Shown: in pieces, positions 1,124-30,170 of the stretch
Layout: every line of letters starts with the position of its first letter
How positions within the stretch are numbered: position 1 is the stretch's first letter
Assembly (NCBI GenBank): GCA_012799645.1
Contig: JAAZKV010000007.1
Span: forward strand, 3,355 to 67,354
Origin: Candidatus Iainarchaeum sp.
GTDB taxonomy: Archaea > Iainarchaeota > Iainarchaeia > Iainarchaeales > JAAZKV01
Direction of reading: 5' to 3'
DNA: 64,000 nt
The notes under the pieces: generated by a model
The model's input: the letters and a program-made list of their open reading frames with translations, nothing else
Told to the model about the DNA's origin: nothing
The model's database searches: none
Translations under genes and position numbers: made by a program

Positions 1124-1321
1124 AACAAAATTCCCCCTCACCTTTTCTTTTTAATTAATTCAATAATTTTACATAAAAAAGAAATAAAACTAATAAAAAG
1201 GGAACTGGTAAAAATTAAAAAAAAACGCACAAAAACACGAACTAATAACCCACATTTTTGGTTTTTTGATTTTTTAGTTTTTTTGATTTATTAATTTTTT
1301 TAAATTTTTGATTTATTGGAT

Positions 1322-2101
1322 TTATTGATTATTAGCTTTTTTTATTATTTCAAGTAGTTCCATTATTTTTTTGGATTTTTGGGGTGATTGAGAGGAAACA
1401 AAGCGTTTGAATCTTTCCATTTGGGTAGGATCAAGTGCTGTTTCAAAAAACACTGGACTTCCTTTTCTGTTCCCAACATTCACTACATGATCATCTACGC
1501 GTATTCCACTCTCTGCATAAATCTTTTTAATCAACCCATTTTTGACATTATAAACAAAATCAATATGGGATAATTCTCCTTGTGTTAAAAAAACCGCGTC
1601 AGGCAAATCATAAAAATCATAAAACGCTCTTTGTTGTTGTTTGTAAGCAGGAGTGAGCCCTCTAACAATTTCTGATACCACCCCATACTCTGTAAAAACC
1701 TCTCCTTTAACTTTCCTTTTCATTAAACTAACTCCAACAGGTTTTACTGATACTTTTGGATACAAAATATTGAAAATTTTCATCCAAGCATACCTACTAG
1801 AAGCGTGTTCTTTTGTTGGATTATTTTTGGGCACACGAAAAAATCTTCTCTTGCCTCCAAACCTAACAATAAAAGTGCGTGATTCTTGAGTAGTAAAATT
1901 TCTAAAAGCCCTACCAATAATACGCGCTCGTGGAAAAAAAGAAGATGGTTTTTTGAACAACACCCTAAACTTTCCCTTACCCTGCACTCCCTTTCTTTGC
2001 GCAATTTTATTCCGGGCATTTATGTTTTGCGCAATTGTGTTTTGGGACACTTTATTTTGTGTTGTTTTATTTTTCCTCACTCTATTCCTTACCCTATTCA
2101 T
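1322..2101 (-). CDS. Hypothetical protein with an Arg/Lys/Asn/Gln-rich N-terminal region
   Basis: 259-aa ORF. The C-terminal 150 aa are not low-complexity. No family recognised. Confidence 0.45.
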   Translation of the reverse strand: MNRVRNRVRKNKTTQNKVSQNTIAQNINARNKIAQRKGVQGKGKFRVLFKKPSSFFPRARIIGRAFRNFTTQESRTFIVRFGGKRRFFRVPKNNPTKEHASSRYAWMKIFNILYPKVSVKPVGVSLMKRKVKGEVFTEYGVVSEIVRGLTPAYKQQQRAFYDFYDLPDAVFLTQGELSHIDFVYNVKNGLIKKIYAESGIRVDDHVVNVGNRKGSPVFFETALDPTQMERFKRFVSSQSPQKSKKIMELLEIIKKANNQ

Positions 2102-2236
2102 AATTTAGTATAAATTTCTTAGCATTTAATTATTTTGTTTAATCCAAAAAAACCACTTAGGAGCTTTTATAAACTTATTTCTAAAAACATTATTTAGATA
2201 AAAAAACAAATAAAAAAACAAATAAAAAAAAACTAG

Positions 2237-2309
2237 GCCTTGGTAGCTCAGTAGGTAGAGCGCCCGACTGTTAATCGGAAGGTCGAAAGTTCAAGTCTTT
2301 CCCAAGGCG
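2237..2309 (+). tRNA. tRNA-Asn (anticodon GUU)
   Basis: Acceptor stem gccttgg/ccaaggc, D arm gctc-agtaggta-gagc, anticodon loop ctGTTaa, T arm with gttcaag loop, discriminator g. 73 nt, no encoded CCA. Confidence 0.9.
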
Positions 2310-2646
2310 TTTAAAAAATCTTTTTTCTAAAAAATACAATTATTTGCAAATCACAATTTTTTTAAAAATTATAAAAAACAAAAACTTCGGAAAAATTTTT
2401 TAATTAAATTTTTAATTCCAACACCATTTAAAAAAAATTAATTCTAAAAAATGGTTCAAAAAATCTTAAAAAAAGTATTAAAAAAAATAATTGAACAAAA
2501 TGAATTAAAAAAAAAACCAGTTAAAAAATTTAAAAAAATAATTTAAATAAAAAAAATAGTTTAAATAAAAAAAAACTAATTTAAAATAAAAAAATAATGG
2601 CCCCCACAAAAGGGATCATTACTAAAAAAAAGTTTTTTCATTTCTC

Positions 2647-3399
2647 TTAATTTATTTCTGTTGTTGAAGCAACTATTTTTCCATCAATTTTTACAGAAAC
2701 AACTCCTGGTTTTTCTCCAAGTTTTATTGTTCCTTCAAAATTACGTGGAGTTATTACTTCTGCACAAACCATTTTTGGTGCTACTGATTCCATTTCAATA
2801 ACAACTTGTGTTGGGTTTGATTCTAACACCCTTTTGTTCACTAATTCGAATGAATCACATGATCTTGGTGCTAATAGTACCATTGTGAAAGTTAATTCAT
2901 TTGTATCTGAATTAAATTCCACAGTTATTTCGTGATTCGCATCTTCTGCTACTGTTTGTTTGTATGATGGAACCCAATTATCTATTACTATTGGATAGAA
3001 ATTGTATTCTGCATCAACTAGTGTTAATTCGTAACAACCAATACATCTTAGTCGTTCGAAAAAGTCACCGTCAACTGCTAATCCGTATGTTTTTCCAACG
3101 AAATTAACAGCGGTTCTTGCAGCGTTTATATCTGATTCTTCTGTGAATTCCCAATTCCTCACACAAGCACCGATTTCTTCGTTATAAGAAAATCCTGCTC
3201 CAACTAAACAACCTTCTTCAGTTCTATCCCCACCAACCGCGTTAGTATCTTCTGGATCATCAGATCCTGTTGAAAGTGGTTTATCATTACCAACACTAAC
3301 AACTGGTTGATTTTGATCAACTACAAGAGGTTTGTTTGCATCTTCACCATTTTGTGGAGTTTGAATACACCCACTAAATAGTAAACCAAACATTAGCAA
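2647..3399 (-). CDS. Secreted or lipoprotein-like Cys-rich hypothetical protein; the N-terminus appears split by a 1-nt frame discontinuity (see findings)
   Basis: Lipobox-like LLFSGC near the N-terminus, multiple Cys pairs, no TM segment afterwards. An SD plus ATG at 3428 is in another frame. Confidence 0.6.
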   Translation of the reverse strand: MLMFGLLFSGCIQTPQNGEDANKPLVVDQNQPVVSVGNDKPLSTGSDDPEDTNAVGGDRTEEGCLVGAGFSYNEEIGACVRNWEFTEESDINAARTAVNFVGKTYGLAVDGDFFERLRCIGCYELTLVDAEYNFYPIVIDNWVPSYKQTVAEDANHEITVEFNSDTNELTFTMVLLAPRSCDSFELVNKRVLESNPTQVVIEMESVAPKMVCAEVITPRNFEGTIKLGEKPGVVSVKIDGKIVASTTEIN

Positions 3400-4634: not shown

Positions 4635-5678
4635 TTAAATTAACTTTATTAGTTTGTATTCTTTTTTTCCTAACCCTATTTTTTCTGCATAGTCAAGTGT
4701 GTAATCTCCGTTGAATACTTTTTTTCTTTCTTGTTTTCGGAGTAAATCAAATGATGCTTTATCCACTGCGACAGGATCTGTTCCTACTAGTATTCCAACA
4801 TCTTTTGCGATTGGTTTCATTTTTTTTCCATCACAATCACAATTTTTTGTTATATTGAAAAGAAAATTAAAATAAATAATTTTTTTCCCTTTTTGTGCAG
4901 CGTAAGCGTATTCCACTAGTTTTTCTGAAAAATTATTGGGCATGGTTGAAACCCAATTTGGGGATATTGCTTTGAATGGACAAACAGCAATACACATTGC
5001 ACACCCAATACATTTATCATAATTGATGCGTGGAACAATAGTATCAATTATTAGAGCATTTTTTGGACAGTGTTTTGTACAAGTGTAACATTTTTTGCAT
5101 TTTAAAGAATTTAGAATTGGTTTTGAGTTGCTGTGCATTGCGAGTTTTCCACTTCTCGCAGCACACCCCATTGATAATTGTTTTATTGCTCCTCCATACC
5201 CTGCCAAAATATGCCCTTTAAAGTGAGCGATTACAATCATTTGTTTTGCATCAACAATTGTTTTTCCAATATTGCATTTTTTGAAATGTTTAGGATTCAC
5301 TTCACTAATGTTAATTTCTTTATATTTTTCTCCGTGATCCCCATCAGCGATTTTTATTGGGAGTTGATTAAATCCGTGTTCTTTAGCAATTTTTTTGTGA
5401 GTATTGCTGAAAGTTCTTTCTCCTTTGTACAAAACATTTGTATCAGTGAAAAAAGGTTTAGATTTTTTTGATTTTAAATAATCAATTATTCCGACAAAAT
5501 TTTTTGGGTGAATAAACGTTTCGTTTCCTTTTTCACCAAAATGAACTTTGAGGGGAATATTTTTTTCTAATTTTATTTTTTCATTCTTGACAATTTTTTT
5601 TAGCAATTCTTTAGCTGAAGAAGAAATGTTTTCTGTTTCATTATACGAATTAATTTTTTTAAAATAAACATTACTCAT
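4635..5678 (-). CDS. DUF362 domain protein with two 4Fe-4S ferredoxin motifs
   Basis: CKKCYTCTKHCP and CIGCAMCIAVCP inside a DUF362-like frame (HFKGH, NCDCDG). ATG at 5678 follows gtgat. Confidence 0.75.
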   Translation of the reverse strand: MSNVYFKKINSYNETENISSSAKELLKKIVKNEKIKLEKNIPLKVHFGEKGNETFIHPKNFVGIIDYLKSKKSKPFFTDTNVLYKGERTFSNTHKKIAKEHGFNQLPIKIADGDHGEKYKEINISEVNPKHFKKCNIGKTIVDAKQMIVIAHFKGHILAGYGGAIKQLSMGCAARSGKLAMHSNSKPILNSLKCKKCYTCTKHCPKNALIIDTIVPRINYDKCIGCAMCIAVCPFKAISPNWVSTMPNNFSEKLVEYAYAAQKGKKIIYFNFLFNITKNCDCDGKKMKPIAKDVGILVGTDPVAVDKASFDLLRKQERKKVFNGDYTLDYAEKIGLGKKEYKLIKLI

Positions 5679-5690
5679 AATCATCACAAA

Positions 5691-7040
5691 TCATACAATG
5701 CTTTTTTCTATTGGGTGTGTTTTATAGTATCCATAACTTATGATAAAAATTATTATAGTGGTTATTGGATAACTTAACCAAACCCCAAATAATCCCATAT
5801 TGAAAATAAAAATTAGTATTAGTGATACAATTATTTGTGTAAAAATATTTGCGAATGAAAGAATCATTGCGATAGTGGTTTTTCCCGCTCCGCGATACGC
5901 TGTTAATATTACTACATTTGCTCCAAATAATCCAAACAATAATACAAACATTACTATTGAAGTGATTGCTTCATTCATTACTGCTAAATTGTTCTCTATA
6001 AAAAAAGAGGTTAGTTCTTTAACAAAAATAAGAATAAGTATTTCTAAAATTGTTAGGAAGGTGAATGAAAAAATCATTCCTTTTTTTATTATCTCGTGCA
6101 CTTTTTTTGTTTTTTTTGCACCAAGTGTTTGTCCAACAAGGGTTAGTGTGGCTAGAGAAATTCCAAAAGAAGGTATTGTTGCTAAACTTGTCACTCTCAT
6201 TCCTATTCCGTATGCAGCGATCGCGTTTGTTCCAAACCAAGCAATAATAAAAGTGAGTAGCACGAACCCTATTGATCTTGACAAAAATTCAAGAGTGGTT
6301 GGCACCCCAATTTTTATGAATTCAAATAATGCTTTTTTGTTGGGGTAAAGATTTTTTTTCCTAATATGCACAAGTTCTTTGTTTAGTGTTAACCAAATTA
6401 GTGCAATTAAAAGTGATGCTCCTTGAGTGAGTACTGTTGCTATTGCTGCTCCTTTCACTCCCATTGCTGGCACTCCATATCCTCCAAAAATAAATAATGG
6501 ATCTAAAATAAAATTTAGTACAAGTCCAATGAAAGCAATTATTAATGGTAATTTTACCTCTCCAAGTGATCTTAGAATACTAGTGAATCCTTGGTAAACA
6601 TATCCAAAAACAATTCCTATAAAAATTATTTTTGTATAACTTGAAGCAAGAATTGATACATTACTTTCCGCTCCAATTAGTGTTACTAACAAATCCGAAA
6701 TAAGATACCCAATTATTCCTGTGCAAAGCCCAATTATTGTTAACCAAATTAGTGTTTGTCCTGCATAATACTCAACTTTTTTGTGTTTCTTTTTTCCAAA
6801 GTATTGAGCTATAATAATTGCTCCTGAACTACTAATTCCGAACATTATTGAATTAACCACAAAAATTATTGGAAAACTTACCGAAATACCAGCAATGCTT
6901 TCTGTTCCTAGTTTTGCAACCCAAAACATATCCACTACTTGGTAAAGAGTTGCAATAACATTAATCAACACTAAGGGGATTGAGAGTTGAATTAGTGCCT
7001 TATACACAGGAACATTTGTTAAATCTTTTTTTTTGAACAT
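5691..7040 (-). CDS. MATE family efflux transporter
   Basis: About 12 TM segments. N-terminus YKALIQLSIPLVLINVIATLYQVVDMFWVAKLG is typical of MATE. The stop lies 13 nt upstream of the DUF362 gene start (4 nt from the ORF-track start). Confidence 0.85.
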   Translation of the reverse strand: MFKKKDLTNVPVYKALIQLSIPLVLINVIATLYQVVDMFWVAKLGTESIAGISVSFPIIFVVNSIMFGISSSGAIIIAQYFGKKKHKKVEYYAGQTLIWLTIIGLCTGIIGYLISDLLVTLIGAESNVSILASSYTKIIFIGIVFGYVYQGFTSILRSLGEVKLPLIIAFIGLVLNFILDPLFIFGGYGVPAMGVKGAAIATVLTQGASLLIALIWLTLNKELVHIRKKNLYPNKKALFEFIKIGVPTTLEFLSRSIGFVLLTFIIAWFGTNAIAAYGIGMRVTSLATIPSFGISLATLTLVGQTLGAKKTKKVHEIIKKGMIFSFTFLTILEILILIFVKELTSFFIENNLAVMNEAITSIVMFVLLFGLFGANVVILTAYRGAGKTTIAMILSFANIFTQIIVSLILIFIFNMGLFGVWLSYPITTIIIFIISYGYYKTHPIEKSIV

Positions 7041-25858: not shown

Positions 25859-27145
25859 TTATTTTGACCATTTTTTGATTGCTTCTGATAATTCTTTACT
25901 ATTTTTTGCCGCTTCTTTCACATCAATTCCGTTCATTTCTGCTTCGATCGCGTCCCTCATTGCTTTTGCTCCTGCAAAAGTTCCGCTTGGGTGTCCGTGA
26001 ATTCCTCCGCCTGCTTGAATCACTATGTCTCTTCCCATTGAGTGAATTAGTGGTGATACACTTTGTGGGTGAATTGCTCCTGAACAAACAGCCATTACTG
26101 GAGCTAACCCCATCCAATCTTCTTGTAATTTGTGTTTGAATATTTTTTCTGAAATAAGAGTATCCTCAATTTTTTCTCCAAGAAGCATAATTTCTGTTGT
26201 TTCTTTATTACCAATTCCACCAACTTGTAATTCATCCACTCCAATTAATCTACAAATTTTTGAAACAACAAGCATACTTATTCCGTGATTGTTGGCTTTT
26301 GTAAAAACACCATGCCCTGCTTTGTGTGCGTGAATCACTATATTCAAGTCAAGTTCTCTTAATGCTTGAAGACCTGACCAACCAATAGTGAATGCATCAA
26401 CTAAAACAAATCTTCCCCCGTGAGAAATAACCATTTTTGCTCTTGACACCATTTGATTATAAGAACCAGTGATATTTGGCAAATACTCTTTCACTTCCCC
26501 TGTTTCTCTCTCCACTCTTCTTTTAACATCAAGCACTGCTCTTATTCTTTCATCAAAATCATTTCCTTCTAGTGAAGTTAAATTTTCATCATCTCCAACA
26601 AGATCAGCGCCCCCCCTCCAAGCTTCTTCTGCGAGTTTGGCATACTCTTTAATTGTTAATCCAACTTTTGGTTTTATTACACAACTCAAAAGTGGACGAT
26701 GAGGAATCCTCATTAACCTTCTAATCCCCGGAACACCATAATGCGGACCATAATAGTGTTTTACAAAAGAATCCGGAAACTCTATATCAAGTAATTTTAT
26801 TGTTTTAATTTCTCGCATACTAAAAATATTCCCAGCAATTGAAGACAACACTTGTGGAATATTTCTTGCTTCAAAAAGATTTTCAGGAAAAGCGATTTTT
26901 ACAATATTGTTTTTTTTACTAATCTCAAATATTTTTGGAGAAAATTTTTTGAAAGTAGTTTCATCAATATTTTTTAGTTCAGTCCAAGTACCAAGTCCTG
27001 CTTCAGAAGCAACTTTTCTTGCCACTGTTTCTAAAGTAACTCCCTTTGCTGGTTCAATAGAATAAACACAAATAAGATCAGTGTTTTCTGGTTTGTATTT
27101 CAAATTCAAATACGTTTCAAGTCTTTCAACAACCAAAAAAACCAA
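25859..27145 (-). CDS. RuBisCO large-subunit homologue, form III-like, with non-canonical active-site residues (possible RuBisCO-like protein)
   Basis: GLGTWT, IAGNIF, IKPKVGL, GDDENLTS, HGISM, GGGIHGHP motifs. TTG start after gagggg. See findings for substitutions. Confidence 0.8.
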   Translation of the reverse strand: MVFLVVERLETYLNLKYKPENTDLICVYSIEPAKGVTLETVARKVASEAGLGTWTELKNIDETTFKKFSPKIFEISKKNNIVKIAFPENLFEARNIPQVLSSIAGNIFSMREIKTIKLLDIEFPDSFVKHYYGPHYGVPGIRRLMRIPHRPLLSCVIKPKVGLTIKEYAKLAEEAWRGGADLVGDDENLTSLEGNDFDERIRAVLDVKRRVERETGEVKEYLPNITGSYNQMVSRAKMVISHGGRFVLVDAFTIGWSGLQALRELDLNIVIHAHKAGHGVFTKANNHGISMLVVSKICRLIGVDELQVGGIGNKETTEIMLLGEKIEDTLISEKIFKHKLQEDWMGLAPVMAVCSGAIHPQSVSPLIHSMGRDIVIQAGGGIHGHPSGTFAGAKAMRDAIEAEMNGIDVKEAAKNSKELSEAIKKWSK

Positions 27146-27305
27146 CCCCTCACAATCACCAAACTTTATTACTAACTCACTCTTACTAATACATTTTCAC
27201 TAATTTATTTTTATATTCATTTTCATTAACTTATTTTCATCAATTCATTTTCACTAATTTATTACTAATTTATTTTATTATTAATTTTCACACTATTTTT
27301 TTATT

Positions 27306-27512
27306 TCATTGTTTTTTTAAAACCAATCTTATATCTTCGTCAGTTATTGTTTTTCTTCCAGCGTGTTTTGAGTAAAGTGAAGCTTCTTGAGCAACTTTCA
27401 TACCCACATCCTCTAAATGCTCTGCGAGTACTTTAGCAGCAGAACTACTAACCCTAATCCCACTAGATTTTCTAATAATCCTATCAACAGCCGCCAAAGG
27501 CAATTCAGACAT
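27306..27512 (-). CDS. Archaeal histone (HMf family)
   Basis: MSELPLAAVDRIIRK...RVSSSAAKVLAEHLE...AGRKTITDEDIRL, 68 aa. gaggtg SD upstream of the ATG at 27512. Confidence 0.85.
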   Translation of the reverse strand: MSELPLAAVDRIIRKSSGIRVSSSAAKVLAEHLEDVGMKVAQEASLYSKHAGRKTITDEDIRLVLKKQ

Positions 27513-27694
27513 AAAAAAAACACCTCTTTTAATAAACACCCATTTTTTAGAAAAATAAAACATTAGAAGAATAAAAAGGTATGCTTTTGAGCCAAAAATC
27601 GGCTTAATTGCGGAAAAAAAAGAAAAATAACTCCTTTTTAGACAAATTAACCAAAATTATTAGAATTAATTCCTCGGCATTGTTCTTAGAGAAG

Positions 27695-27725: not shown

Positions 27726-30170
27726 ATGCCATACTTAACTCACGAATTAATCAAACCTAATTCAATTGAAGCGAGACTTTATCAAGAAATACTATTTGCG
27801 AGAGTGTTAGAAAAAGGAAACACTCTTGTAGTTGCACCCACCGCACTTGGTAAAACAATTATTGCAGTAATGCTTTCAGCACACAAATTAAAAGAAACTA
27901 ATTTGGAAAAAAAAGTTTTGTTCCTCGCACCAACCAAACCACTAGCAGTGCAACACAAAAATAGTTTTAAAAAATTTTTACAAATTGATGAAAACAAAAT
28001 TGTTACAATCACAGGAACAACAAAACCAAAAGAAAGAAAAAAAATTTATGAAGAAGCACTAATAATCAATGCTACTCCTCAAACAATTGAAAATGATTTA
28101 CTTAATGGATTACTTGATCTAAAAAAATTTGCTCTAGTTATTTTTGATGAGGCACACCGAGCAGTTGGAGATTATGCTTATGTTTTTGTAAGCAACCAAT
28201 TTGCAAAAAAAAATCCCGAATGCTTAATACTTGCTCTCACTGCATCACCAGGAAGCGAAAAAGAACACATCCAAGATGTTTGCAAAAATTTGAACATAAA
28301 AAATATTGAAATAAAAGATTCCACTGATAGTGATGTGAAACCATACATTAATGAAATTGATGTTACTTGGGTAAAAGTAGAGCTGCCCCAAACTTTTGTT
28401 GAAATAAAAAACTTGCTTGAAGAATACCAAAAAAAACAAATCAAAGTGCTAAAATCAATAGGATTTGCGGTTACGGAAAACAAAAAATTTTATAACAAAA
28501 TCAGATTATTAGAATTACAAAAAAGAATCCGCGCCCAATTAATGTCACACTCCAACACCCAACCAAGTTTATACATTGCAGCAAGCAAATGTGCAAGTAT
28601 GCTAAAAATTTCTCACGCAGAAGAACTAATAGAAACACAAGGAATTGGAGCACTAAAAAATTATTTTGACAAATTAGAAGAAGAAGCAGCGAAAGGAAAA
28701 AGCAAAGCCGCAAAAAGCATAGCAAATGATGAAGGAATAAAAGAAGCAATTATTTTAACACACAAATTATTTAACCAAAAAGTACAACACCCAAAATATG
28801 AAGAACTAAAAAAAATAATTCTACGCCAACTAAAAGAAAAACCCAAAAGCAAAATAATTGTGTTCAATCATTACAGAGATTCAATAAGTGAAGTAGTGGA
28901 TTTTTTGAGTAGTGAAAAAGAAATTAGGGCAAAAAAATTTATTGGACAAGCAACAAAAGGAAAAGAAAAAGGAATGAGTCAAAAACTCCAACAAGAAGTG
29001 CTCCAAGAATTGCGTGAAAACAAACACAATGTACTAGTTGCTTCAAGTGTTGCAGAAGAAGGACTTGATATTCCAAGCGTAGAACTAGTAGTGTTCTTCG
29101 AACCTGTTCCCAGCGAAATAAGAACAATTCAAAGAAGAGGAAGAACAGGAAGATTCTCACGAGGAAAAACAATAATATTAATGACAAAAGGAACAAGAGA
29201 TGAAGCATTCTATTGGACAGGAAGAAACAAAGAAAAAAAAATGAAAAAAACACTGAAAGAAATGAAAGAAACACAAATGCTACTCACAAGTGAAATAGAT
29301 CAAGAAATAAAAAAACAAACAAAAATAACTCACAACCAAAAATTTGATAAAGAACAAACCCTGTTAAAAACATTTACAGAAAAAACCGAAGAAAACAAAA
29401 ACGAAATAATTATTTTTGCTGACACAAGAGAAGGAGCATCAAGTGTAACAAAAAAACTATTTGATATGCCAAACACCAAAATTATTTCAAAACAACTAGA
29501 AATCGGAGACTACATTTTAAGCAAAGATGTTTGTGTAGAAAGAAAAACAATAGAAGATTTTGTGAACTCAATGATTGATGGAAGATTGTTTACACAATTA
29601 GTTAATTTAAGAGAAAGTTATCCAAAACCACTAATTCTAGTAGAAGGAAATTTTGAAGAAATATTCAATCTAAGAAACATTCACAAAAACTCAATCATAG
29701 GAGCACTCACATCAATTGCTCTGGATTACCAAACCCCAATCATTAACACAAAAAACTCAAACGAAACCGCCGAGTATTTATACGTTATTGCAAAAAGAGA
29801 ACAAATAGGAAAAGACAAAGAAATAGGAATCAGGTTTGGTAGAAAAGGACTCACTACAAGCGAAAAACAAAAATTCATTGTAGAAGGATTCCCACTAGTC
29901 GGACCACAATTAGCAAAAAACTTGTTAGAAAAATTCGGTTCAATAAAAGCAATAATTGATGCTAACGAAAAAGAACTAACCACAGTAGAAGGAGTGGGAA
30001 AAAAGAAAGCAAGAGAAATCCAAAAAATAATACACGCAAAATACAAAAATAACGAAAATGAAAAAGAAAACACGAACAAAACAATAAAAGAAACAATTGA
30101 AAAAAATGAAACAACAAATAATAAACCAATAGATGAAAATGAACCAATAGATGAAGAGGAACAAGAATAA
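27726..30170 (+). CDS. hef: Hef: SF2 helicase fused to an ERCC4/XPF nuclease and (HhH)2, with an acidic low-complexity tail
   Basis: APTALGKT (Walker A), FDEAHRAVG (DEAH), QRRGRTGR (motif VI), ERCC4 core GDYIL...VERKTIEDF, C-terminal HhH (VEGVGKKKAREI). Confidence 0.85.
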   Translation: MPYLTHELIKPNSIEARLYQEILFARVLEKGNTLVVAPTALGKTIIAVMLSAHKLKETNLEKKVLFLAPTKPLAVQHKNSFKKFLQIDENKIVTITGTTKPKERKKIYEEALIINATPQTIENDLLNGLLDLKKFALVIFDEAHRAVGDYAYVFVSNQFAKKNPECLILALTASPGSEKEHIQDVCKNLNIKNIEIKDSTDSDVKPYINEIDVTWVKVELPQTFVEIKNLLEEYQKKQIKVLKSIGFAVTENKKFYNKIRLLELQKRIRAQLMSHSNTQPSLYIAASKCASMLKISHAEELIETQGIGALKNYFDKLEEEAAKGKSKAAKSIANDEGIKEAIILTHKLFNQKVQHPKYEELKKIILRQLKEKPKSKIIVFNHYRDSISEVVDFLSSEKEIRAKKFIGQATKGKEKGMSQKLQQEVLQELRENKHNVLVASSVAEEGLDIPSVELVVFFEPVPSEIRTIQRRGRTGRFSRGKTIILMTKGTRDEAFYWTGRNKEKKMKKTLKEMKETQMLLTSEIDQEIKKQTKITHNQKFDKEQTLLKTFTEKTEENKNEIIIFADTREGASSVTKKLFDMPNTKIISKQLEIGDYILSKDVCVERKTIEDFVNSMIDGRLFTQLVNLRESYPKPLILVEGNFEEIFNLRNIHKNSIIGALTSIALDYQTPIINTKNSNETAEYLYVIAKREQIGKDKEIGIRFGRKGLTTSEKQKFIVEGFPLVGPQLAKNLLEKFGSIKAIIDANEKELTTVEGVGKKKAREIQKIIHAKYKNNENEKENTNKTIKETIEKNETTNNKPIDENEPIDEEEQE

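Follow-up and report, generated by a model that had tools for sequence, protein, structure and literature searches.

A RuBisCO homologue of form III-b descent without the carbamylated lysine in an Iainarchaeum-type archaeon: a candidate young RuBisCO-like protein

We describe a RuBisCO large-subunit homologue encoded in a 64,000-nucleotide stretch of Candidatus Iainarchaeum sp., a DPANN archaeon of anaerobic digesters with a tiny genome (contig JAAZKV010000007.1, positions 3,355 to 67,354; hereafter the window, whose numbering is used throughout). The protein has glycine in place of Lys201 (spinach numbering), the residue that is carbamylated in carboxylating enzymes. With moderate confidence, we read the gene as coding for a functional protein that descends from a DPANN form III-b RuBisCO and no longer carboxylates; it would amount to a young RuBisCO-like protein (RLP), and its history looks like a recent RuBisCO-to-RLP conversion. 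In RuBisCO, the Lys201 carbamate is a Mg2+ ligand and the base for enolisation of ribulose-1,5-bisphosphate (RuBP), and K201/K191 mutants of characterised enzymes are reportedly inactive. The role of this carbamate in RuBisCO chemistry has been described in the literature (PMC8920986). On the basis of such established enzymology, proteins whose position 201 is occupied by Gly, Ser, Asn, Thr, Ile or Val should not carboxylate: without the carbamate neither the canonical Mg2+ site nor the enolisation base would remain, and therefore CO2 fixation would be lost.

The open reading frame (ORF) at 25859..27145 on the minus strand is uninterrupted and comprises 428 aa when counted from its first in-frame TTG (27145). 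The TTG at 27136 (425 aa, 'MVVERLE…') is the start found in orthologues and in database gene calls; it is preceded by GAGGGG and 9 nt, and it is the only start shared with an 88% identical orthologue, whose upstream DNA contains no earlier TTG. Both domains of the RuBisCO large-subunit superfamily, the N-terminal alpha/beta domain and the C-terminal TIM barrel, are recognised with scores far above the Pfam cut-offs (PF02788 RuBisCO_large_N, 134.2 bits; PF00016 RuBisCO_large, 242.2 bits). The top NCBIfam model is rubisco_III (TIGR03326) with 497.3 bits, which is 0.15 bits short of the equivalog cut-off of 497.45, and all RLP models score below their cut-offs (NF007095, 239 against 409; TIGR03332, 192.5 against 513.6; NF042437, 202 against 700). 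The AlphaFold2 model has a mean predicted local distance difference test value (pLDDT) of 88.1 and a predicted template modelling score (pTM) of 0.88, with low confidence in loop 6 only. Every one of its best structural matches is a genuine RuBisCO, the first being the form III enzyme of Pyrococcus horikoshii (2cwx; TM-score 0.89-0.93, sequence identity 43-44%), and form III enzymes are the top PDB matches by sequence as well as by fold. The identification as a RuBisCO large-subunit homologue made in a first-pass annotation of this stretch, which was produced by eye from the sequence, is thus borne out by both Pfam domains, the form III model and the fold match.

When the protein was aligned by HMMER against PDB sequences, GGADLVGDDENLTS of the window protein was placed opposite GGIDLLKDDENFTS of form III enzymes in the Lys201 region; for 2cwx, the register is 'rggadlvgddenlts' against 'sggidllkddenfts'. 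In the same comparison, 'ihahkaghgvft' stands opposite 'ihahramhaaft' (HAHKAGH for HAHRAMH, i.e., R295K), 'vdelqvgg' opposite 'vdqihtgt' (DELQVGG for DQIHTGT, H327Q), and 'vcsgaihp' opposite 'vasgglhp' (CSGAIHP for ASGGLHP, G381A). The register is identical against the solved form III enzymes 6hun and 8dht, and a MAFFT alignment of 270 sequences gives the same columns, with K201G, R295K, H327Q and G381A. Retained in this alignment are E60, T65, W66, N123, K175, K177, D203, E204, H294, H298, K334, S379, G380, G403 and G404; the catalytic set of a carboxylase is incomplete, with Gly at 201 and the three other replacements, and D203 and E204 are in place. The by-eye register of the first-pass annotation, in which Lys201 was missing, is the one recovered by both programs, as are the R295K, H327Q and S-G-A substitutions that it listed; its statement that the codon (GGA) is two changes away from AAA or AAG within an intact frame agrees with the codon read from the open ORF (Table 1).

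An assembly or sequencing error at the lysine codon, or a misaligned register, was considered as the source of the glycine. However, three independent alignments share one register, and the exact window protein is encoded on 21 contigs from independent samples; the seven of these that were displayed, from different samples including a biogas-fermenter metagenome, have no nucleotide differences and all carry GGA. SRR3184675 and ERR9584948 are examples of the biogas and digester samples in which the contig occurs. Whether orthologues share the replacement, a question already raised at first pass, can be answered from the same column: the 88-89% identical orthologues (P0003, P0004 and G001) have Gly, which in P0004 is encoded by GGT, a synonymous difference from GGA, and Ser is found in the 60% orthologues (TCC) and in another clade (TCT). 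The artefact explanation is thereby effectively refuted by the sequence comparison, and we assign it a negligible probability. As a separate observation, another assembly of the same species contains a copy (P0005) whose C-terminal third is out of frame; it has 97% identity across 78% of the query, followed by unrelated sequence, and may represent either an assembly indel or a frameshifted allele.

The absence of Lys201 extends to a set of related proteins. Among the 120 nearest protein clusters at 90% identity, 16 have G, S, N, T, I or V at this position: Gly in the group of the window protein, Ser in P0006, P0007, P0010, P0030, P0034 and P0036, Asn in P0041, Thr in P0082, Val in P0044, and Ile in P0042, P0043 and P0045. 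The other 104 clusters all keep the lysine and are nearly invariant at 19 catalytic or binding columns, with one other change each in three of them (e.g., H327Q in P0020). By their NCBI names, the relatives belong to Iainarchaeum/Diapherotrites-type DPANN archaea, and two of those without Lys201 are named 'type III RuBisCO'.

In the phylogenetic tree, all K201-less groups fall within one starred clade (99) of DPANN form III-b proteins, designated III-y, where the window protein lies among canonical form III-b sequences. It belongs to a starred clade composed of K201-less Gly, Ser and Ile/Val groups; a second clade, entirely Ser, and the Asn sequence are located inside a canonical subclade. The tree was built without labelled references of forms I, II and IV, and the form placement rests on the model scores and PDB matches. 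Descent from the archaeal form III lineage, as suggested at first pass, agrees with the rubisco_III model, the PDB and fold matches and the nesting in III-b, but the label 'form III-like' used there should be dropped, since the window protein is not in the clade to which Wrighton and Jaffe gave that name and belongs to DPANN III-b.

The free tree requires three changes to account for the loss of K201. Approximately unbiased (AU) tests do not reject a single origin (p = 0.58), and they likewise do not reject that the Gly+Ser group of genus g1 arose separately beside the canonical y2 sequences (p = 0.31); the number of losses is therefore put at one to three by these data, and long-branch attraction among the fast-evolving rows may play a part. 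Long stems lead to the K201-less groups: between the III-y node and the window protein the path measures ~0.84, as against ~0.3 for canonical y2 tips. Two sequences look like possible intermediates, namely P0020, in which K201 is present and H327Q has already occurred, and P0041 (G033:C31), which groups with canonical sequences and is altered at just two of the 19 sites, by K201N and K334R.

Purifying selection on the K201-less gene is as strong as that on its canonical paralogues. The ratio of nonsynonymous to synonymous substitution rates (dN/dS) is 0.097 between the window gene and P0004 (dS 0.75), 0.114 between the window gene and G001, and 0.136 inside the Ser clade, and the medians for the canonical paralogues are 0.18 (y2), 0.15 (y1) and 0.11 (III-x). 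Between the K201-less groups the ratio is 0.34-0.51, a pattern that fits a burst of amino-acid change following the loss and renewed constraint afterwards. In 14 K201-less proteins with identities of only 51-55%, 10 of the 19 catalytic or binding sites are invariant against a background of 27% (hypergeometric p = 0.014). The gene might instead be decaying, as a redundant copy on its way to becoming a pseudogene once a form II/III enzyme had been acquired; the between-group ratios, the long stem branches, the frameshifted P0005 and the canonical paralogue that is always present could all be understood in this way. Against this, the frame is intact in all groups, dN/dS within groups (0.10-0.14) equals that of the canonical paralogues, and the clade has kept ten catalytic sites invariant across its two genera (51-60% identity). 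Moreover, the genomes that contain the clade are only 0.7-1.3 Mb in size and streamlined, and useless genes are therefore unlikely to persist in them. We consider decay improbable.

Among the sites conserved in these 14 proteins, D203, E204 and K175 are invariant, H294 is kept in all but one, and the proximal phosphate site has its glycines (G380/G404) throughout the set. Sites that changed along with Lys201 were tabulated as columns that are at least 93% conserved in the canonical neighbours and altered in the K201-less set. Residue 173 in the beta-1 strand, which contacts the carbamate in plant RuBisCO (PMC8920986), is changed in all 14 proteins together with residues 171-172. Phe211 is changed in 13 of 14, and His327 is Gln or Asn in the same number. 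In the Ser-clade, Asn and Ile/Val groups, Arg or Glu takes the place of Lys334, which is kept in the Gly group of the window protein; the remaining co-varying sites are Met335Glu, Gly381Ala, Leu382Ile, Ser62Gly, Thr65Ser and His185Tyr. The remodelling is thus concentrated in the carbamate pocket, at the distal phosphate site and in loop 6.

No new acidic or basic residue able to replace the carbamate was found among the K201-less proteins. The sole charged gain is a conservative Arg-to-Lys change near E60: residue 44 of P0001 (~27014-27016), which precedes E60 by four residues, is Arg in 98% of the canonical neighbours and Lys in 12 of the 14 K201-less proteins. A relocated carbamylation lysine was considered as a general solution and rejected, as this is the only such gain and the Ser and Asn groups do not have R295K. 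One may still suppose that the protein continues to carboxylate RuBP and is activated by some other metal-site chemistry that needs no carbamate, as its score on the form III equivalog model (497.3 bits) practically equals the cut-off and most substrate-binding residues are kept, with Lys334 in the Gly and Ser groups. This is very improbable in our estimation, given that K201 is invariant in all 104 canonical neighbours, that Gly, Ile and Val can neither ligate a metal nor serve as a base, and that H327 has also been lost, as has K334 in some groups, with no compensating charged residue gained. The inactivity of K201/K191 mutants and the constant co-occurrence of a canonical RuBisCO point in the same direction.

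In the genome to which the window belongs (a 779-kb assembly, G000, 89% complete, in which the window is contig C22), a second RuBisCO is encoded on contig C27 (30773-31747; locus L002, ORF 1159..2682 minus, 507 aa). It reaches 642 bits on NF010002, for which the cut-off is 489, and matches the Methanococcoides burtonii enzyme (5mac) with 848 bits. With all key residues including K201, the characteristic insertion, and a Lys-rich N-terminal extension of 45 residues, it is a canonical form II/III enzyme. Contig C26, 9.5 kb long, carries an e2b2-like isomerase of the IF-2B family (1672-2505, locus L005) and, about 2.3 kb away, an AMP phosphorylase (4817-6301, locus L004; TIGR03327, 586.6 bits, cut-off 535). 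The best model for the isomerase is that of ribose-1,5-bisphosphate (R15P) isomerase, at 231.7 bits and hence below the equivalog cut-off of 314.1; it is probably an R15P isomerase, and because of this score the choice between that and an MtnA-like assignment is not certain. The first-pass annotation, which named deoA and e2b2 as genes to look for, was right that no AMP-salvage partners lie beside the window gene, but an AMP phosphorylase and a candidate R15P isomerase are present on C26. The canonical form II/III enzyme is a more plausible member of the AMP pathway than the window protein, and since this enzyme is present on C27 the reading of the window protein as an RLP is strengthened. CO2 fixation in this genome would then be carried out by the form II/III enzyme with the AMP phosphorylase and the probable R15P isomerase. 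A heterodimer of the window protein with the canonical subunit was also considered and is unlikely, the co-resident enzyme usually being of form II/III with ~33% identity.

The same pairing is seen in related genomes, of which 60 were compared. K201-less copies are present in G001, G005, G027, G033 and G034, each with a form II/III enzyme, and in G032 with a canonical III-y enzyme, and a canonical RuBisCO is found in seven of the seven genomes that have a K201-less copy. Canonical III-y is the sole RuBisCO in five genomes, and most genomes of the same genus combine canonical III-y with a more distant canonical protein, III-x. Two canonical form III paralogues of this kind were observed in G002, G007, G008, G010, G011, G012, G014, G015 and G018 (loci L015-L035 and L047-L055), with III-x ~40% and III-y ~53% identical to the window protein and III-y located beside a histone gene in several genomes; G014 additionally has a form II/III enzyme, and G017 and G020 have III-x plus form II/III. 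As a further observation, contig C12 of G047 (locus L046, 6001-7005 minus) encodes a RuBisCO-family protein that is 31% identical to the window protein and receives similar scores from the form III, OiaX and MtnW-type models; it is probably a true RLP in an archaeon of the same order.

The K201-less protein would most likely still bind a phosphorylated pentulose-type ligand, together with a divalent metal held by D203/E204, and would then catalyse an enolase- or isomerase-type reaction that does not depend on a carbamate, K175 or H294 serving as acid/base. Because D203, E204, K175 and the proximal phosphate glycines are retained, a metal-dependent enzyme acting on a pentulose-like substrate is favoured over a pure binder. 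A broader proposal, which we put forward tentatively and regard as possible, is that Iainarchaeota-type DPANN archaea have in their K201-less proteins active enzymes for a new reaction, one that needs no carbamate and whose substrate is RuBP or a related pentulose (bis)phosphate; these enzymes would have arisen by a recent RuBisCO-to-RLP transition that can be traced stepwise and was possibly repeated up to three times. If this is true, P0020 and P0041 are living intermediates, and the canonical sister genes at the same locus provide the comparison.

The main alternative is a pseudoenzyme that keeps the RuBisCO fold and a sugar-phosphate pocket and performs no catalysis, with a ligand-binding, regulatory or structural role, such as sensing or sequestering RuBP or R15P; we judge such a protein, and this example of its role, to be unlikely, though less so than the other rivals discussed here. 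The activator lysine is gone and position 201 appears unconstrained, Lys334 is Arg or Glu in several groups, H327 is changed, and strong purifying selection fits any function, catalytic or not. On the other hand, the invariance of D203/E204 and K175, and the near-invariance of H294, are not obviously needed by a binder, and the locus contains no linked partner gene. Several points also weigh against the preferred reading of a functional, non-carboxylating enzyme. The loss of carboxylation would follow from the textbook mechanism and from the known behaviour of mutants. Residue 201 varies among six residues and therefore seems to have no specific new role, and the enrichment of conserved catalytic sites (p = 0.014) is modest. 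The e2b2 candidate scores below its equivalog cut-off. The sole-copy pattern, in which a III-y type gene is the only RuBisCO in 0/7 genomes with a K201-less copy versus 5/14 others, agrees with a loss permitted by redundancy and is not significant by itself (one-sided Fisher p ~0.10, hand calculation; genomes 77-89% complete). Finally, the gene neighbourhood (histone, Hef, cysteinyl-tRNA synthetase (CysRS) and membrane proteins) gives no functional hint.

In fold, length and domain order, the window protein resembles the archaeal form III-b enzymes, among them those of P. horikoshii (2cwx) and Thermococcus kodakarensis (1geh/3a12) and the group that Jaffe et al. 2019 (PMC6389311) call 'DPANN form III-b', and it is nested in a III-b subclade and lies at the same locus as canonical relatives. 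Unlike these enzymes, it lacks Lys201, carries R295K, H327Q and G381A in a remodelled pocket (171-173, F211), and coexists with another, canonical RuBisCO, and for these reasons carboxylase activity is unlikely. According to Jaffe et al., 'most' DPANN III-b sequences keep the critical residues (PMC6389311). The form II/III class of M. burtonii (5mac) and of organisms from the candidate phyla radiation (CPR) and DPANN is represented here by the C27 protein, which shares ~33% identity with the window protein, contains the insertion typical of the class as well as every catalytic residue, K201 among them, and probably serves as the working carboxylase of the AMP pathway.

Form IV RLPs, such as the MtnW/YkrW 2,3-diketo-5-methylthiopentyl-1-phosphate (DK-MTP-1-P) enolase, the RLPs of Rhodospirillum rubrum and Chlorobium tepidum, and the OiaX decarboxylase, have likewise given up RuBP carboxylation through active-site substitutions, and the window protein is probably, as they are, still a metal-dependent enzyme on phosphorylated sugars. 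It differs from them in that it does not descend from form IV (192-239 bits on RLP models with cut-offs of 409-700). Known RLPs diverged anciently, with ~30% identity. Their substitution pattern is also the reverse: RLP-like representatives in a 50%-cluster library keep K201, D203, E204 and H294 and have R295, H298 and H327 replaced, whereas in the window protein K201 is lost, and H298 and a basic residue at 295 remain. Tabita and colleagues reportedly noted in 2007 that K201 is retained in the named RLP clades.

In the same library, K201 is absent from 35 of 137 superfamily representatives. For the ten K201-less representatives that were examined (nine distant lineages and P0044), the form III model scores best; the nine distant lineages have 4-13 sites changed and score 270-421 bits. 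For example, P0124, P0127, P0136, P0140 and P0157 have M, E, L, H or L for K201, also with rubisco_III as the best model, and are 35-43% identical to the window protein with 4-7 of 19 sites changed and 337-421 bits, well short of the cut-off. The window clade is much nearer to working enzymes than these, with four sites changed, 497 bits, and canonical sisters at the same locus. K201 loss thus recurs among form III relatives. What is new here is a probable RLP-type loss of carboxylation that would have arisen recently inside form III-b, K201 loss itself having been seen elsewhere; no description of K201-less form III-b proteins was found in the literature searched, and large RuBisCO surveys filter out RLPs by tree position.

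How carboxylating RuBisCOs and non-carboxylating RLPs are interconverted is a long-standing question. The K201-less clade is still 51-56% identical to form III enzymes of the working type and has sisters with intact sites, and because these canonical sisters are close and occupy the same locus, the order of substitutions that followed the loss of the activator lysine should be readable and testable by reversion. There is also a practical aspect: the window protein is likely to be mis-annotated as a carboxylase, and K201-less proteins may be counted as carboxylases in metabolic reconstructions of DPANN archaea and in sequence surveys that use tree position to remove RLPs. In addition, very small genomes of the symbiont type are seen to keep two or three genes of the RuBisCO family that differ in role.

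Table 1. Positions of the RuBisCO homologue, its altered active-site codons and neighbouring features in the window
Feature	Coordinates	Strand	Remarks
RuBisCO large-subunit homologue, form III-b-derived, without Lys201	25859..27136	-	425 aa, conserved TTG start
Ala codon at Gly381 column, proximal phosphate site	26075..26077	-	alignments, co-variation table
Gln codon at His327 column, distal phosphate site	26225..26227	-	alignments, co-variation table
Lys codon at Arg295 column, distal phosphate site	26321..26323	-	from residue 275 of P0001
Gly at otherwise invariant Phe211 column	26564..26566	-	co-variation table
Gly codon GGA at carbamylated Lys201 column	26594..26596	-	alignments; same in 7 independent assemblies
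Beta-1 strand residues ~171-173	26678..26686	-	S-C-V here, G-T-I in canonical relatives; packs beside the residue-201 side chain
Four TDRTGAAAATR copies	27192..27256	-	spacer between histone gene and RuBisCO homologue; spacing 14, 14, 26 nt
Archaeal histone gene	27306..27563	-	conserved upstream neighbour in K201-less and canonical relatives alike
Hef-type helicase/nuclease	27726..30170	+	conserved synteny anchor

The genes around the RuBisCO homologue (Table 1) follow a conserved order: Hef, histone, RuBisCO homologue, a Na/H exchanger or membrane protein in some cases, and CysRS. This order is common to the Gly, Ser and Val variants and to canonical enzymes of the same clade such as P0008, G024 and G026, and at least the histone gene is adjacent in G007:C51, G008:C4 and G012:C47. 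Because the gene order is shared with canonical enzymes of the same clade, the K201-less gene corresponds in position to a genuine form III gene. No sugar-phosphate enzymes are linked to the locus, the neighbours being housekeeping genes (histone, Hef, CysRS, Na/H exchanger and, in some genomes, an HMGL-like gene).

The repeats in the spacer upstream of the RuBisCO homologue read TAGTGAAAATG, TGATGAAAATA, TAATGAAAATG and TAGTGAAAATG; across the whole window, the motif TDRTGAAAATR has 8 matches where 2.8 are expected. The array is not present at the canonical P0008 locus. A similar upstream array occurs in the 60% orthologue (TTTAGTGAGAATT, TTTAATGAGAATT and TTTAGCATGAATT), and TTAGTGAAAAA and TTAGTGGTAAT are found upstream of the 89% orthologue. 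These repeats may form a putative operator or regulator-binding array.

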